A stretch of DNA of 63,179 nucleotides, counting the filler, from Dirinaria sp. TL-2023a (lineage: Eukaryota), in assembly GCA_051941275.1 (NCBI GenBank). It is 47 parts of 47 records of this genome, joined end to end, with 100 filler letters (N's around TTAATTAATTAA, not from the genome) between each part and the next. Parts side by side here need not be neighbours in the genome. Positions count along the whole stretch, not along the records: positions 10,961 to 12,226 come from JAVEBF010002854.1; 46 more parts are not named here. The stretch is one strand, 5' to 3'. The position numbers and the translations under genes are program-made. The notes under the pieces are model-generated. The model saw only the letters and a list, made by a program, of their open reading frames with translations. It had not been told where the DNA came from and made no database searches. Shown here in pieces: positions 9,494 to 33,091 of the stretch; the first letter of the stretch is position 1; each line of letters opens with the position of its first letter.

Positions 9494-9668
9494 NNNNNNN
9501 NNNNNNNNNNNNNNNNNNNNNNNNNNNNNNNNNNNNNTTAATTAATTAANNNNNNNNNNNNNNNNNNNNNNNNNNNNNNNNNNNNNNNNNNNNGATCTTT
9601 TATTGCGATTGCTTGGTTTACTCGTGCAACGCCGACGAGTGCAAAGATAAAGATGATAGTTAGTGTAA

Positions 9669-9966
9669 TGTCAGGGTCTGCACAGCGCTTAATGACATAT
9701 GAGTACGAATAGACTAAAACACTATCTATGAAAAAGAAAAGGAAAAGGAAATCTAAATACAGATAGATTTAAATGTGAAATCGAAACAACATCGATTCGA
9801 GGACGCTAAACCTGATCAGACAAAAACACAACACCTCTAGCAAAACACTTGATATAGATCTTTCCACACACATGTGGTATCCAGGGACTCTGCTTCAGGG
9901 TCTAGGGTCCATGCAATCATGTGACCCAATCATATGATCAGGCTCATAGAGATCTGGTTCATGATA
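9669..9966 (-). mobile_element. LTR, family E
   Basis: Reverse complement of 7157-7434, with a small insertion. Confidence 0.85.
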
Positions 9967-10116
9967 CTGCGAACGCTTTATCATCTTTATTACTCGTTTC
10001 TTTCACGCTCGATACTCGATTATTTTCACGTCAAATACTCGAGTATGATCACGCACGCTACTCGACGTTTTTGAGATAGACTCACGAGAGCTCGTCGTCT
10101 TTGAAGAGAGAAATAA

Positions 10117-10278
10117 TGTTACGGGTTTAGTGCGATAGTATTGAAGCTCCCTCGAAGGAATCTCGGGAGCGCTAGCGAACGAGGCTTTCACTTAAACCTC
10201 GCCCCCATGTATCTTAGTTCTGTATAGCTAGTATTCTCGTCAATATTATATCTATCTATGCAGTCTAGATCCCTGACA
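10117..10278 (+). mobile_element. 3' LTR (162 bp), family F, with PPT
   Basis: GAAGAGAGAAA upstream. Copies at 17899-18060 (same upstream internal sequence) and 18764-18925 (reverse). Confidence 0.88.
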
Positions 10279-10496
10279 TTTATGCTTTTATATAATCTTT
10301 CTCAGATCGAGCTGACTGAGCTGCGACGCTATTTAAAGAATATTTTAAAAAAGAACTGAATTTATCATTTCGTTTCGTCAGCAGAAGCTTCGATTCTTTT
10401 TGTATCTAAAAAAGATAAAGAACTACGATTATGTGTAGATTATAAAGGGCTAAACGCGATTACAATTAAAAATCGTCATCTTTTATCTTTTATAAC
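10279..10496 (+). pseudogene. Gypsy RT N-terminal relic
   Basis: YNLSQIEL...[30 protein letters not shown]. Confidence 0.88.
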
Positions 10497-10860
10497 TGTA
10501 ACAGTGATACCTGATACATTGATATATATTGACCAATACAGACTAGCGCCGCTTGGCAGTCGGGGGTGCCCAGGGACAATCCTTCGGGGTCTGAAGTATG
10601 GCTAGCGCCGTCTAGGAGTCAGCGTCGGAAGGTTGAATCTCGAGACTAACTAAAAACCAGTGAGCGATTGACGCTTATAAAGCATTGTGTCTACGAGCGC
10701 TCGTGATTCGTCAGCGCGGAGCTCGTCATGGTGAGGCAATATTAACGCTCGCGATTAAGTATAGAGGATCACTCACTCTTTCGAAGAGGGTTCTTAGTGA
10801 TTAGTTCTAGCAGAAACTACAGTATGAGGTAGTCATATAATCTATTACACTGCCACGTCT
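10497..10860 (+). mobile_element. LTR, family D, truncated
   Basis: Starts TGTAACAGTG. Matches 2259-2485 (reverse) and shares ends with family D2. Confidence 0.82.
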
Positions 10861-11404
10861 NNNNNNNNNNNNNNNNNNNNNNNNNNNNNNNNNNNNNNNN
10901 NNNNTTAATTAATTAANNNNNNNNNNNNNNNNNNNNNNNNNNNNNNNNNNNNNNNNNNNNGTTCTTCCTCGTCTGAACGATTTATCGTCAAAATTATTGA
11001 CAGAAGTATCAAATAAAGAGTCGTTTTTCATTTTGCTTGAGAGAGATTGTTATAGTCTAGCTAATAAATAAGAAGAATAAAATCCATACGTACATATTAG
11101 CATCGAGATATGACATGATCCAAAGTGCGTAGATCTTGAAATAGATGTAGTAAGCTAATGTAGAGTCAGGCTCCTGACGCTCAAGCAACACAAAACAAAA
11201 AACGAATAAAAGAGATATAATTTTAAATTGTAGTTGAATTTCCAGGAATCCCGATGATGGTGCAGAGGGCTGCTTGAGATAGTAGGGCGTAAAACCCCGC
11301 TAGTCTTCGAGTGCTGGCGCTGATGTGCAGTCGGGTTCCTTCTTCTTTTGTGATTTTTGAGGGGGAGGGTTCGAGTCTCGCTAGGTGCTTCTTTTTTTTT
11401 CTTT

Positions 11405-11519
11405 TGTCACGATCTTAAACAATAAGTAAGTAGTAAGATAGGCAGCCAAGTCTTGATCTTTGGATCACTAACATATTGTCAAGGCTTTGACCTGGGTAAA
11501 CCTATCTAACCTAGAGACA
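11405..11519 (+). mobile_element. Short (115 bp) LTR related to family C, putative 5' LTR
   Basis: TGTCACGA...GAGACA. Shares TAAGTAGTAAGATAGG and AAACCTATCTAACC with 2129-2258. Confidence 0.75.
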
Positions 11520-11713
11520 ACAGCGTTAAAAGCACTCAGCTTCTTTGCCAGCGTCATAGACATCACCAACATTATCAGGCTACCTAGTAGTATAATCACA
11601 TCAGCATCGAATACAACTCATTTGAAGCAACGATTTGAGCATAGACAAAGTCAGACCGCCAACTTGCTAAAATCATATCTTCAACACCTTCTCTACCTGG
11701 TAGCTTCTACATC

Positions 11714-12226
11714 ATGGATTTTCCAGACATGGGCAAAAGCATGGAGCAGTTTGAAGCCAAAACGAGTCAGACCTTTTCTGCTTGTCAACAGTCTTCAATC
11801 GCATACAAAGTCACTTGCAACACGCAGCAACGTCGCGAATCCTCCTTCAAAGCCTACACAGCATGGTCGCATCAGTATCCTTCGCAACAGCAGATGATTG
11901 AAGTCGGCTTTCAGTATGTACATTGGAAAGGCAGCGACTGTGTTGAGTGTTGTACCTGCAATTTGGAGCTTAACAACTGGAACAAGAGCGATGATCCTTG
12001 TGAGGGACATAAGAACTACTCACCCGACTGCCTATGGCTAAAAGAGCATCGTGATGAACTCGTGGCAGCGAGAAAGCATGTGCGTAAGCATCATACAAGA
12101 AAGTCAAATGCAGCATCAGATGCAGCACCAGAACCACCTTTCGCAGTTCCCTCACCTACTGCTCCAACGTCTACATTATCCTTCCTCACCATCACCGCCA
12201 TCGACAGTCTTCCTGCACCTGCTATT
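11714..12226 (+). CDS. BIR (IAP-type zinc finger) domain protein, 3' truncated, inside an LTR element
   Basis: RRESSF...W...GFQY...D.VECCTC-NLELNNWNKSDDPCEG-H-KNYSPD-C fits the BIR pattern CX2CX16HX6C. Confidence 0.88.
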
Positions 12227-12326
12227 NNNNNNNNNNNNNNNNNNNNNNNNNNNNNNNNNNNNNNNNNNNNTTAATTAATTAANNNNNNNNNNNNNNNNNN
12301 NNNNNNNNNNNNNNNNNNNNNNNNNN

Positions 12327-13094
12327 CCTATAGACCCCTTCGCGCCCCGTCCCCTCTCCCCCGAAAGCGCCTTCCGGGAATCCCTCTTCGACGCACTGGC
12401 CGACGACGAAGGCGCCGCGTTCTGGGAATCCGTCTACGGGCAACCGATACACCAGTATGCGCGGCCCGCTGCCTCCTCCAACCGCCCATCTTCGAGCGCG
12501 GAAGAGGGCTCGAACCTCGAAGCCATGACGGACGAAGAATACGTCTCGTACGTGCGGGCCCGGATGTGGGAGAAATCGCACGAGCACGTGCTCGAAGAGC
12601 GGGCGAAGCGGGATTCCGAACGGGCGCGGAAGAAAATGAAGCAGGAAGAAGCGAAGCGGTGGGACGAGGATGTTGAAGCGGCGCTGAGGAGAGGCGAGGA
12701 ACGACGGAGAAGGAGATGCATGGACGCTGCGTGGCAGAGGTATACGGCGCGCTGGGACGAGTTTTTGCACCGCCCTACTACTAAGCATGAGGAGAGCGCT
12801 GCCGCATTGAGGAAATCCATCCCCTGTCCCGTCCTCTCCGGGCGATGGCAGGATGTGGATCATGAGTCCGTGGAGCGCTTTTTCTTGAGCCATGCCCGAA
12901 CCGAGGAATCATTGGATCTGCGCGGCGTGCTCAAGGTTGAGCGGGTCCGTTGGCATCCGGATAAGATGCAGCAGCGGGTTGGGGCTGGGGTTGGGGCTGG
13001 AGGGATCGATGCCGAGACTATGAAGATGGTCACGGCTGTGTTTCAGGTTGTGGATGGGTTGTGGTTGCGGGCTAGGGATAAAAGCAAGAGCTAG
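12327..13094 (+). CDS. NFKBIL1-like conserved fungal protein (RWHPDK), 5' truncated
   Basis: AFRESLFDALADDEGA.FWESVYGQPIH, MTDEEYVSYVRARMWE and LKVERVRWHPDK motifs. Confidence 0.75.
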   Translation, partial: PIDPFAPRPLSPESAFRESLFDALADDEGAAFWESVYGQPIHQYARPAASSNRPSSSAEEGSNLEAMTDEEYVSYVRARMWEKSHEHVLEERAKRDSERARKKMKQEEAKRWDEDVEAALRRGEERRRRRCMDAAWQRYTARWDEFLHRPTTKHEESAAALRKSIPCPVLSGRWQDVDHESVERFFLSHARTEESLDLRGVLKVERVRWHPDKMQQRVGAGVGAGGIDAETMKMVTAVFQVVDGLWLRARDKSKS

Positions 13095-13692: not shown

Positions 13693-13836
13693 GAACACCT
13701 AAGTAGTAAGATAGGCACCAAGTCCCTTGACTTGGTTTAGTTAGTCTTTTGGCGCTGCCGGGACTTTTACCATTGGGAAACCTATCTAACCAAGGTTGGG
13801 TCTTTGACATATCTAACCAAGGTTGGGTCTTTGACA
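13693..13836 (+). mobile_element. LTR, family C, with its last 27 bp tandemly duplicated
   Basis: Matches 2143-2258. TATCTAACCAAGGTTGGGTCTTTGACA occurs at 13783-13809 and 13810-13836. Confidence 0.88.
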
Positions 13837-20399: not shown

Positions 20400-23217
20400 N
20401 NNNNNNNNNNNNNNNNNNNNNNNNNNNNNNNNNNNNNNNNNNNTTAATTAATTAANNNNNNNNNNNNNNNNNNNNNNNNNNNNNNNNNNNNNNNNNNNNC
20501 GGACAAGAGAGCAGTGTTTCTCCTCAGTCGGTCAAACGATTATGCAAAAAGAAAGGAATTTAGGACTGATGTTCCCTTCCCGCTCAGCTATGAGCGAAAA
20601 TGATTGCCAGATCTGCTTTCTGTATCGGATGAAACTCGTGCGGAGATTGTTCCAATTGTGCGATATTAATACACTGGTCTTTGAAAGGAGATGTGCTACG
20701 CTGTCTCTCTGTCTTGCAACATGGAATATGAGAGCCCGGGCTCAGATTCCTCCACACAAGGTGAAAGATGGCAGAAAAAAGCACCAAAAGCAAGTCATGC
20801 TCAAGACGAGAAATTAGGGGGACTGCTGTTCCTGCTAGATAGGTAATTTCCATCTGTTGAACTGGGCACTTAGAATCTAGCAGTCACTGCTCAGGAGTGA
20901 CTCCGGCCTCTCGCGGAATTGATGCTCGATTCAGTTTAGCACTATCCTCACTGAGACGCGGCATATCATGGATCATGAGGTACTCATATCTTTTACATTT
21001 ATATGTCGAAGTTTTGCCTTTTTTTTCTTCTTGTTTTTTTAAAATGATGCTCATGCATTTACCTTTTGGATATGAACCCGATGAATAGAAATGGAAGAGA
21101 TGAAGAAGGTGTATATGTGTTTGTAGTAGTGGTGATCTACCTTTTTTTTTTTTTGGTGGAGAGATTGGATGTATGTGTGTATGCTATTATTGTTCGGAAG
21201 GGGTTTTAGGTTCGTTTTCTTGGCTGGAGGGAGGTTTTTAATTCGTTTGATGGAAGCGTAAATGTGTGCTTCGATCAGATTACATTATGTTGGGTAATAT
21301 CAGTAAAACTTGATGAGAGATTCGTTGAGTGTACCTTATGAGCTTTCTCTTAAAAGGATGGACTGGGGCAGGCAAGATTCCCCCCCCTTTTTTTTTATTT
21401 TTAAACCTAAACCCGATTAATGGGAGAAGAAGAGTCTGCTATACCTCTACAGTAGTAATCAAGCATCCTAACATCGCGTTGTGAAGTTTTTCAGTTTGAA
21501 AGCAGATCCCTTAAATACGCTATTAAATTAAGTGGTTCAAGAGGAACATTTTTTTAAAAGGGGGGTAGGCGGGAAAGGGAAAGAAGGTAAGCCGGAAGGG
21601 AGGATTATAATGAGATAAGTGATTGAGCTGGGTTTGAAGGAATTTACTGAGGTATGGCGGAGAAGATAAGAGGAGGGATTGAGGAACGCGTGGGGGGACT
21701 GATTGATATCGCTTCGCGGCTCTGGCAATGTCAATTGCATCCCAGGATTTGGACGAACNNNNNNNNNNNNNNNNNNNNNNNNNNNNNNNNNNNNNNNNNN
21801 NNTTAATTAATTAANNNNNNNNNNNNNNNNNNNNNNNNNNNNNNNNNNNNNNNNNNNNGGAAATCATCGGTACCAGGGCTCGTTCAGGGTTCGGTCCGAC
21901 TAGTTGTCCCGGCGTTTCACCGCCTATTATACTTAACCTGAGAAATCTCTGCCATAGCTTGTTCCTCCTTAATGCCAATAATCATCCTACTTTGGTGCCT
22001 CCCATTGCATATATTCCAACACCGTGACCTTGTGGTATATTATTCTGCGCAGCGGCTATGGCCCTATAGGATCCTTGGCCTGGGACTGACCCAATCATAC
22101 GGTGGTTGCGTCTATAATTGTCTAGCAAGAACATTTCATTTGGGAATAACGATCGGAGAATTTCCTCTGAAGAAGAGCTGTGCGGCGTCGATGCCATGAC
22201 TGTAAAGAGTTTGCTTCTATGACGCGTTTTCGAATCGAAGAAACCGAGATGAGTACGAAGCTGGTGTACTGAAGAGCTTAAAATATTCGATGGCAATTAA
22301 GACTGTGAAGATCAGGTCCAGGCACTTTGTGTCAAAGCTTTCACCAATAACCGTGACCTCCTGCACAACTATGTTGTTAAAGGAGCTACACAACAGACAC
22401 CAGCAATTTCTTCTGAAGTGGACAAAAGTCCAACGGCTCAATCGGTTCTTCTTTTCAAAACTGAAATTAGGAAGATAGCAGGAAGCTAATGAGATCTTGA
22501 GAAGTATGAATGCTTTGAGGATCTTGGTGTCATAGGTGGCTCATCATTAGCAGACAACAAGTCTGGTGTCTGAAAAGCTCCGCGTTAAATAAGCAGCTCA
22601 GTCACTGAAAGGGTTTAGTGGATGTTAAAGAAGAGGAGGTGTTCCACTGAATTACCTTCACATCTCGCATACTACCCAGTGACATTGGACGGGTTTTGTG
22701 TTCAAGCAGTATCCCGACAATTTTACGCTCTTTACAATCATGGTTCATCAGGATTCACACATTGGCTCACAGAGCCTGATCCCTGCGATCTGATTCCAGG
22801 GTTTGAGTGGAGCATGTCCTCTTGTGCATATCATGGAGCATGTGCTCCCTGCTCCTCTCATTTCCTTATTGGGAGCAACCCCAGACTTCTTCGCATTGTG
22901 TCTCCTAACTTGCTGCACAAATTGCACACGCAGCAATGCGATCTATTCCCAGAGGATTTCTTTTCCATCCAGGAAAAGAAGATGCAGGGTCTTAATTTCA
23001 GGCTCTTCAACATCGTTCTTTGGCTAATGAATCTCTCGTATTCAACCACAACCCAACATACAGGAATGAAGCAGCACGTGTCAACCCATGGCAGCAGCAG
23101 TGGTGAATATTAGACAGNNNNNNNNNNNNNNNNNNNNNNNNNNNNNNNNNNNNNNNNNNNNTTAATTAATTAANNNNNNNNNNNNNNNNNNNNNNNNNNN
23201 NNNNNNNNNNNNNNNNN

Positions 23218-31312: not shown

Positions 31313-32557
31313 ATCAAAAGAGTTTAGTTAGACATGAAAATCGACTTTATGTTCTCGAGAATGAGGCTGTAAAAGAAGAACTTATTCGCAAGAATCATGA
31401 TGATTCTTTGATCGATCATTTTGATGCAGAAAAAACTCTGAAACTAATTCAGAGAAAATATTACTGACTCGTCTGCGAAAAACAGATGAAAGAATATGTT
31501 CGATCATGTGATATTTGTCAACGCATCAAAGCATCGCGATATAGATCATATGATGAGTTTAAATTCTTGTCTATCGTTACGAAATCATGAAAAAAGCTCA
31601 TCATGAATTTCGTGACGAGTTTGTCGTTGAGCAAACGACGCAACGTTGTATACGACGCGATTCTGATAATAATCGATAAATGTATCAAATGTCAAAGACT
31701 CAACCTTGATTAGATAGGTTTCCCAATGGTAAAAGTCCCGGCACGGCCAAAAGACTAACTAAATCAAGTCAAAGGACTTGATGTCTATCTTACTACTTGC
31801 TTAGTTTTCAGGGTCGTAACATCAAAATGATCAAATATATATCGATCAAAAAAATTATCGACGTCGCTCAGCTGACGAAAATATTTTTCGATGAAATCGT
31901 CTTACGTTTTGACATGTCAGATGACATAATGAGCGACAAAAAGTCTGTATTCATTAATACATTTTGATTCGCGATATGCTTTCATGCGAAAATTAAACGT
32001 CGATTAAACACTGTTTTTCATTCACAGACAGATGACTTAACTGAACGTTAAAATCAAGTTCTAAAGCAATATTTAAAAATTTTCGCAAATAAAAAGCAGA
32101 CAAATTGAGCAAATTTGTTTTCATTGACAGAATATGTTTATAATAACAGTCATCATAGTTTCGTCGATTTTACGTCGTTCTTTCTCATGTATGCTTATCA
32201 TTCAGAAATTCGCTATAAAATTGAGAACAATGTCGTAAAAAAGAAGATATCATCTGCAAATCAGAGAATCAAAAAATTGTACACGTTAAAAAACGAGCTG
32301 AGCGAGCGTTTAAATAAAATCAATGAGTATCAGACGCGATATTATAATAAAATTCACAAGTCTAAAAAGTACGTCGTCGAAAAGCTGATACTACTGTTAA
32401 TTAAGAATTTTAAGCAAAAACGATTTAGCAAAAAGATGTCGCATAAATTTGTTGAATCTTTTAGAATAAAGAATAAGATAAAAGCGCAGACGTATAAATT
32501 AACGCTGCTCTTTATTTATCGAATTTATAATACTTTTCACGTTTCGCTGTTAAAGTC
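31313..32557 (+). pseudogene. Gypsy integrase relic interrupted by a solo LTR
   Basis: HDD...HF, CDICQRIK, MNFVTSL, IMSDK and TVFHSQTDDLTER*NQ motifs. Same family as 42633-43279. Confidence 0.92.
31690..31821 (-). mobile_element. Solo LTR, family C (132 bp), with 5-bp TSD TCAAA
   Basis: TCAAA at 31685-31689 and 31822-31826. Removing the LTR and one TSD restores IDKCIKMIKYI. Confidence 0.92.
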
Positions 32558-33091
32558 NNNNNNNNNNNNNNNNNNNNNNNNNNNNNNNNNNNNNNNNNNN
32601 NTTAATTAATTAANNNNNNNNNNNNNNNNNNNNNNNNNNNNNNNNNNNNNNNNNNNNTTGAGCATTTGCTCTGGGCCCCTACGAACCTGTTGAGCCGCCC
32701 CTTGTGTTGATATTGCTTCGGCTCTAATTAACAGAACTTCAACCAGGTTTCGGTCAATGAAGTGTGCCACCCCCCAGCTAATGTAAGGTCGGGAGCGCTA
32801 AGATATAGGATATCGTAAAGCTAAGAAACCACGCGCCTGCTCTTAGCTGCTGGCCATGTAGCTGTCAGTGTGTGACCGAAAGAAAGCGGGGTTGGTACGG
32901 ATTGAAATGGGCCAACATTTTACACTAGACTACCCCGCACTTAGACCATTTGAGGGAGTAAACCACCAGTCACTACTACCCGGTAGGCGTCTCCCACGAA
33001 GTAGTGTGCTCGATGGCCACGCATATTATCTCTTGAGAACCCAATATACGGTCCCCAACATTCACTCTGATTAATGCCCGCATCTACAACC

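Follow-up and report, generated by a model that had tools for sequence, protein, structure and literature searches.

The window analysed here, 63,179 bases of DNA from Dirinaria sp. TL-2023a, consists of 47 unplaced contigs of 1218-1274 bp, which are sorted by length and discontinuous. They are separated by 100-nt linkers (N's around TTAATTAATTAA), and any feature that spans a linker is an artefact. One of the contigs carries an LTR-like repeat (long terminal repeat, LTR), a leader, and the start of an open reading frame (ORF) headed by a BIR domain. We consider it probable that this contig represents the 5' portion of a non-autonomous, gag-only LTR element that has captured a BIR, and that such elements occur in lichen-forming ascomycetes. 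The entire finding lies on this single contig, and its features are as follows (window coordinates).

10961-12226: unplaced contig of 1266 bp, bounded by linkers at 10861-10960 and 12227-12326; its neighbours in the window are unrelated
11405-11519, + strand: LTR-like stretch of 115 nt, TGTCACGA...GAGACA, whose termini are 4-nt inverted repeats (TGTC/GACA); related to the family C LTR, but diverged
11520-11713, + strand: 194-nt leader that separates the LTR from the ATG
11714-12226, + strand: 5' part of a BIR-headed Gag-family ORF, 171 codons, stop-free, cut by the contig end
11834-12040, + strand: BIR domain, amino acids 41-109, zinc ligands C79, C82, H99, and C106 (PF00653)
12077-12103, + strand: remnant of finger 1, HVRKHHTRK, where relatives have ARKxACRRCPAKFPSNTKLHxHVxDHHxxK

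The BIR reading frame and its upstream repeat

The ORF is truncated by the end of the contig at position 12226, and its N terminus (MDF...) is similar to the starts MDFN, MEFN, and MDSN of the protein family described below. A sequence-only reading of this DNA had claimed a complete BIR domain, and the profile test bore this out: Pfam PF00653 matched at 55.8 bits against a cut-off of 22.9, with an E value of 7e-15, over profile positions 1-69 (69 of 70). The zinc ligands are present in the translation as C-x2-C-x16-H-x6-C, and the ligand columns are invariant across eight BIR heads. Sequence matches of the ORF in the PDB were to the BIR domains of NAIP, DIAP1, cIAP, XIAP, and survivin. Downstream of the BIR, about 18 residues of the first C2H2 finger, both cysteines included, are gone in frame, and the window copy is also without the near-invariant tryptophan of the ISWAEIA motif. 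Because of these two losses, the copy may be decaying or non-functional.

The 115-nt repeat upstream of the ORF has TG...CA ends with short inverted repeats (TGTC...GACA). It shares with the family C repeat of this genome a 26-nt block, identical at 25 of 26 positions (E 1e-4), and a 30-nt block of 84% identity, so that the sharing of blocks noticed in the sequence-only reading was found again. The local alignment score of 11405-11519 with family C was 82-84, compared with 200 for family C copies among themselves. The window contains the octamer TGTYACGA 12 times, where 3.4 ± 1.8 copies are expected; 0 of 100 shuffles reached this count, and at least three repeat families of the window begin with it. 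The family C repeat itself is a true short LTR of 130-132 nt. On account of the family C blocks, the true LTR nature of family C, and the enrichment of TGTYACGA, an LTR of a type common in this genome very probably begins at position 11405. The leader, predicted at about 195 bp, measured 194 nt. Only the 5' LTR is visible in the window; a 3' LTR and a target duplication would lie past the contig end. The other copies of the family C LTR sit on contigs unrelated to the BIR contig:

2129-2258, + strand: 130 nt, TGTTACGA...TCTTTGACA; the flanks TATAT and AGCTC differ, i.e. there is no target duplication
13693-13836, + strand: 5' end lost at the contig start, 27-nt tandem duplication at the 3' end
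31690-31821, - strand: 132-nt solo LTR flanked on either side by the 5-nt sequence TTTGA (31822-31826 and 31685-31689)

Two more repeat families open with the TGTTACGA terminus, one at 493 and 56474 (-) with a pair score of 284 and the other at 1964 and 45934 (-) with a pair score of 210. Several short-LTR families of this genome seem to share one integrase-recognition end. The contig with the solo LTR at 31690-31821 (-) also contains a Tf2-1-like integrase SH3 domain at 32109-32558 on the + strand (PF24626, E 6.6e-9); because the two are in opposite orientation, they do not belong to one element. Immediately 5' of the LTR on the BIR contig, positions 11355-11404 hold GGTTCGAGTCTC, which is similar to a tRNA T-arm and is followed by a T-rich run. 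ARAGORN made no tRNA call there, nor anywhere else in the window, and Rfam gave only a chance-level match on the BIR contig. The stretch could be a decayed tRNA gene or could be due to chance.

A modular protein family with exchangeable heads

A search with the ORF that covered 1.84 billion representatives yielded 2579 matches at E ≤ 0.001, most of which were multi-BIR proteins of about 30% identity. Word-index protein searches with the 171-aa ORF gave no match in the 'longer' or 'near' length classes. The best single-stretch relatives, P0087, P0148, and P0143 (36-41% identity), were alike past the BIR too. When the tail of P0148 was used as query, 45 proteins were found at E ≤ 0.001, and with P0143 the family comprises 46. 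Thirteen of the 45 came from Physcia stellaris, where they lie on different scaffolds, three from Heterodermia speciosa, and the rest from metagenome or Logan assemblies. P0178 from P. stellaris and the window BIR share 50% identity across 92 amino acids. Judging by these carriers of the family, the organism of the window is probably a lichen-forming lecanoromycete. The sequence-only reading had held that the ORF is not cellular BIR1, and its membership in this multi-copy modular family upholds that view.

The family proteins have a constant order after the head. First comes a coiled coil (EEARIAKEKAEAFA), next a highly conserved C2H2 finger with the sequence CRRCPAKFPSNTKLHxHV, then a linker rich in Pro and Thr, followed by the motifs ISWAEIASRP (also ISWAEIASxP), YLTxxDLxxMF, and RITSYF, and by a second C2H2 finger at the C terminus. 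Finger 1 is present in 37 of the 46 members, and in BIR-headed relatives the BIR is followed by a helix and then by finger 1. Pfam recognised a BIR in seven members, and a profile made from the family BIRs added two. The heads that precede finger 1 are of several kinds, namely BIR, a Cys-rich type ('PWSPLLCxC...CxWF'), the 'MDFNPWKDYTPPAYLPPP' type, and a type with a gag-like pattern. As judged from these sequences, the N-terminal head is exchangeable on a constant body. The Cys-rich heads ('PWSPLLCxC ... H ... CxWF'), found in P0170, P0171, P0181, P0186, P0188, P0189, P0190, and P0157, had no Pfam match and no known fold; they may represent another captured zinc module.

Neither RING nor CARD was found in the seven full or partial BIR-headed relatives, the C terminus of the window protein itself lying beyond the contig, and an animal or viral IAP (inhibitor of apoptosis) was rejected on this ground as an identity for the ORF. 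No Pfam domain of a protease, reverse transcriptase, or integrase was present in the 46 family proteins.

By reading, 9 of the 46 heads share the pattern EIGLFxPxLxVNxETPxGD...FRNVRLFIQQ...CLQGxALRWF. One of the nine, P0156, matched Retrotrans_gag with an E value of 0.0019, which is below the Pfam cut-off. The head of P0159 was modelled by AlphaFold2 with the nine gag-like heads as alignment. Block means of the predicted local distance difference test (pLDDT) were 75-92 over residues 21-160, and the remainder was disordered except for the finger regions. Comparison of the model with 48,161 PDB representative chains placed retroelement capsid-type domains in all of rows 1-28, among them dArc1, Arc, PNMA2, copia, the capsid C-terminal domain of Ty1 Gag, PEG10, MLV, RSV, foamy virus, Ty3, and HIV. 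The best match was dArc1 (Z 6.5, root mean square deviation 2.5, 71 residues aligned), a Z score within the range that the tool calls common. Foldseek gave no match for the gag-like head in the PDB at E ≤ 0.001, and a sequence-profile search of the PDB with this head returned zinc fingers only. According to the model, the P0159 head folds like a retroelement capsid lobe, and the family is Gag-derived. The window protein does not have a capsid lobe of its own; the BIR stands in place of the CA-like head. Because sibling heads at this place are predicted to fold like a capsid lobe, the BIR is in the gag position, as had been proposed from the sequence.

The origin of the BIR heads was addressed with trees. 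Seven of them, including that of the window, formed one clade in five of five trees, which were calculated with FastTree on 437 domains (Shimodaira-Hasegawa-like support 0.936) and with IQ-TREE on four subsamples without the degenerate heads P0185 and P0187 (approximate likelihood ratio test values of 70.2, 82.8, 79.1, and 85.4). One capture of the BIR, followed by spread, is thus supported by the phylogeny, in line with the earlier suggestion that an IAP-like domain had been captured and amplified. The BIR of P0193 from P. stellaris fell outside the clade in every tree; this protein is without finger 1, as is the window copy, and its BIR may stem from a second capture or may reflect a long branch. 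Outside the family, the family BIR profile scored best, with 62-70 bits, on the first BIR of the two-BIR, RING-less proteins P0150, P0100, P0074, and P0125. P0150 occurs in clusters of Ascomycota, and 'putative Survivin' is the name of one of these clusters. The sister group of the BIR-head clade was unstable and varied between Bir1-like domains and the middle BIRs of certain three-BIR proteins. In all trees, Bir1-like domains lay within the next one to four enclosing clades, namely one to three in the FastTree tree and in part of the IQ-TREE runs, and the fourth in the rest. Fungal Bir1 is the simplest candidate for the donor.

An LTR-bounded relative and the competing readings

A metagenome scan with the family alignment found three loci, L001, L002, and L003. 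An earlier metagenome scan with BIR-derived patterns confirmed nothing, nor did family-alignment scans of viral contigs and genome contigs. L001 and L002 represent a single locus, recovered from two assemblies with 100% identity across 2301 nt. In L001, a BIR-headed ORF lies between two direct LTRs of 181 nt each, about 85% alike, at 9579-9759 and 11377-11557 (locus coordinates). Their ends read T[G/A]TTACGA...TCTAACA (TGTTA...TAACA), the start being the same terminus as TGTYACGA in the window. A 5-bp target duplication, ATTTG, flanks the unit, and ahead of the 3' LTR there is a purine run, GAAAAAGATAAG. The unit is 1979 bp long and has 1617 nt between the LTRs, mostly a single ORF. This leaves no room for pol, so that the element can be at most non-autonomous. 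L001 thus combines what marks the TR-GAG type, i.e. a length below 4 kb, LTRs, a single gag-position ORF, and the lack of pol.

The L001 ORF runs in a single frame over 10001-10825 with six in-frame stops. By comparison with P0178, two of the stops are at Trp positions, a third is one place from a Trp at a gap, and one is at a Tyr. The locus is at the edge of a region of 20% GC, beside ordinary genes (RPN13_C and SNF5). In its anatomy L001 corresponds to a non-autonomous, gag-only LTR element that underwent multiplication and later inactivation. L003, which is on another contig of the L002 assembly, is more decayed and has kept the tail, the 3' region, and one LTR. The mobile family proposed in the sequence-only reading therefore stands as far as a BIR copy in another genome lies between LTRs with a target duplication; its breadth is limited by there being one complete example only. 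Within the Pro-rich linker of L001 (10405-10720), tandem 60-nt and 45-nt repeats were observed, and the linker seems to grow by internal duplication.

The departures of the window BIR from the consensus, WP>WS and AG>VG, had been ascribed to repeat-induced point mutation (RIP). Both are real C>T changes when compared with the family consensus. The attribution to RIP was not sustained. RIP prefers CpA, and at both departures the changed C is followed by C, not A. RIP-affected repeats are expected to have TpA/ApT > 0.89, (CpA+TpG)/(ApC+GpT) < 1.03, and nonsense changes at Trp and Gln codons, whereas the window ORF gave 0.53 and 1.52 with no stop in 171 codons. In contrast, L001 with its six stops, which are of the RIP type, gave borderline indices of 0.92 and 1.13.

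Several findings weigh against reading the window contig as part of a gag-only LTR element. The ORF is open and not RIPped. Complete LTR-bounded BIR copies are known from one locus only, present in two assemblies, and only 1 of the 47 contigs carries a family copy. Family tails, when sought on the other 46 contigs, were absent apart from one weak Pro-rich match at 22667-22942. No autonomous partner or pol was seen, the tail search having taken in proteins of up to 781 aa. No primer-binding site was recognised in the window copy or in L001, and for self-priming of the Tf1 type no LTR complement of at least 7 nt was found in the first 54 nt after the LTR. The LTR and leader of the window ranked first of 542 natural windows in comparison with those of L001, yet homology was undemonstrated and is not used here: the score was 64 against 38.9 ± 6.3 for shuffles, but natural windows from these loci reached 63 (minus strand) and several reached 59. 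The Z scores of the capsid-type matches do not exceed 6.5, so that the case for the gag-like heads rests on the uniformity of the match list and on the Pfam hint. No donor of the BIR is claimed, because the sister group shifted between runs. Finally, identity within the family is just 30-70%, and its members are annotated as ordinary genes on large scaffolds, which fits an old host gene family too.

This last possibility is the rival that we take most seriously, although we regard it as unlikely. The ORF would be a host gene of a domesticated, Gag-derived family that expanded in lichen fungi, with the BIR acquired by exon shuffling. The upstream LTR would be a remnant promoter or a nearby solo LTR, and the protein a regulator or a restriction factor; in the latter version it would interfere with capsid-headed Gag via the common body, as do factors of the Ty1 p22/Drt2 type. 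The open frame of 171 codons with its non-RIP indices is in keeping with a host gene, as are the divergence of the members and their annotation as genes, on scaffolds that reach 1.5 Mb. These contigs frequently contain solo LTRs, neither pol nor a primer-binding site nor a 3' LTR is visible on the BIR contig, and the structures matched by the sibling head include an endogenised Ty1 Gag restriction factor (row 9). However, LTR, leader, and BIR ORF follow one another in this order in another genome too, where a second LTR and a target duplication accompany them, and the L001 copy has undergone repeat-like decay in AT-rich surroundings. The loss of finger 1 and of a near-invariant Trp from the window copy is unlike a conserved host gene, and the placement of the copy on an unplaced 1.27-kb contig is, we infer, what is often seen for repeated DNA.

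Two further explanations would sever the ORF from the repeat in front of it. An assembly chimera or a contig from a foreign organism, in which LTR and ORF are unconnected, is brought to mind by the nature of the window, which consists of very short leftover contigs. But LTRs of the TGTYACGA type related to family C also occur on other contigs of the assembly, the order of LTR, leader, and ORF is as in L001, and no mark of a junction was found between 11405 and 11714; we consider this explanation improbable. An orthologue of cellular BIR1/survivin with a solo LTR upstream by chance is more improbable still. The scores of the family BIR profile on the first BIR of two-BIR, RING-less proteins and the Ascomycota clusters of P0150 with their 'putative Survivin' speak for it. 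Against it, the 171 residues contain a single BIR whereas two-BIR proteins hold both within about 210 residues, what lies past the BIR aligns with the multi-copy family's C2H2-finger body and not with Bir1, and the window BIR fell inside the family clade in every one of the five trees.

Open frames were also seen on other contigs of the window. The contig at 8228-9493 (- strand) is filled by a 422-aa frame with TPR_8, TPR_12, and TPR_10 (E down to 4e-21), which at its low-coordinate end has an internal direct repeat of 174 nt (80% identity, copies 126 nt apart); the frame resembles the repeat-containing end of an NLR-type protein. At 12327-13091 (+), a GC-rich frame of 255 aa ends in a J-domain-like 'RWHPDK' motif, recognised by reading, and has no Pfam match at E ≤ 0.01. 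A frame of 81 aa at 10360-10605 (+) likewise has no Pfam match at E ≤ 0.01 and lies on a contig with repeats common to five others; its motif resembles that of a decayed piece of Ty3/gypsy reverse transcriptase.

Proposed mechanism and relation to known systems

If the contig derives from a gag-only LTR element, the window copy would be, or would have been, such an element with its 5' LTR, leader, and ORF start, transcribed from its LTR. Because an element of this kind is without pol, it would be copied in trans, its reverse transcription and integration being left to an autonomous LTR element that has the TGTTACGA termini as well. The BIR-headed protein would join particles of capsid-headed Gag via the common body, i.e. 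the coiled coil and the fingers. The source of the BIR would be a cellular BIR gene, in the simplest case fungal Bir1, and the domain would serve as a peptide-binding module. Survivin/Bir1 binds the histone H3 tail. By analogy, the N-terminal tail of histone H3 would be the most likely ligand here, and its binding would tether the complex of the element to chromatin, which is the least certain step. In its full form the proposal is tentative, possible rather than probable: lichen fungi would harbour an LTR lineage with a modular Gag, of which a gag-only sub-lineage swapped its capsid lobe for a host BIR, rides in capsid-headed particles, and uses the BIR to hold H3 or another peptide with N-terminal Ala, thereby steering or tethering integration.

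Fungal Bir1/survivin is a single-copy subunit of the chromosomal passenger complex, with a C-terminal helix for this complex and, in fungi, two N-terminal BIRs. The window protein has in common with it a BIR zinc domain followed by a helix. It differs from Bir1/survivin in having one BIR instead of two, another C-terminal body (finger remnant and Pro-rich linker), and multi-copy relatives. At the positions that we take to be functional in survivin, the two residues that hold the phosphate of H3T3ph look replaced and the acidic residues that hold the N terminus of the peptide look kept. Chromoviruses are Ty3/gypsy elements that carry a chromodomain on the integrase. They are likewise LTR elements with a host domain of the chromatin-reader type and serve as a model for the tethering proposed; unlike in chromoviruses, the reader here would be a BIR on a Gag-like protein of an element without integrase. 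The sibling heads are predicted to share the capsid-lobe fold of Arc, PNMA, PEG10, and Ty1 p22/Drt2, whereas the window protein has exchanged this domain for a BIR.

The usual nucleic-acid binder of Gag is the CCHC knuckle. The nearest known counterpart is the plant TR-GAG element (terminal-repeat retrotransposon with a GAG domain), described as a non-autonomous LTR element of less than 4 kb that has a single gag-position ORF and lacks pol (PMC4350172). L001 resembles such elements in its length of 1.98 kb, its two LTRs, its target duplication, and its single ORF. Those elements are described from plants and have a normal Gag, whereas the elements described here are fungal, a BIR replaces the capsid lobe, and the nucleic-acid-binding part would be the C2H2 fingers. 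Baculoviral BIRs are described as 'hijacked from their hosts' (10.1101/2021.11.30.470311), and the present case would similarly be one of a host BIR taken by a genetic parasite. Unlike the viral IAPs, which belong to baculoviruses and other large DNA viruses of animals, usually carry a RING, and block caspases, the BIR would here be that of a fungal retroelement, placed on a Gag body without a RING.

A literature search, whose coverage lay outside subscription journals, found no report of a BIR in a retrotransposon or in a protein of the Gag family. To our knowledge, gag-only non-autonomous LTR elements are known from plants only, the fungal literature not having been searched for such elements. 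If the reading of the contig is true, this would be the first BIR used by a retrotransposon, and gag-only non-autonomous LTR elements would be extended from plants to fungi. Gag would appear as a scaffold on which the capsid head can be swapped for a host reader domain, and the family would offer a natural test case for a survivin-type BIR as the chromatin tether of a mobile element. It would also be a warning for the annotation of lichen genomes, where such ORFs are called 'hypothetical' or 'C2H2-type domain' genes.

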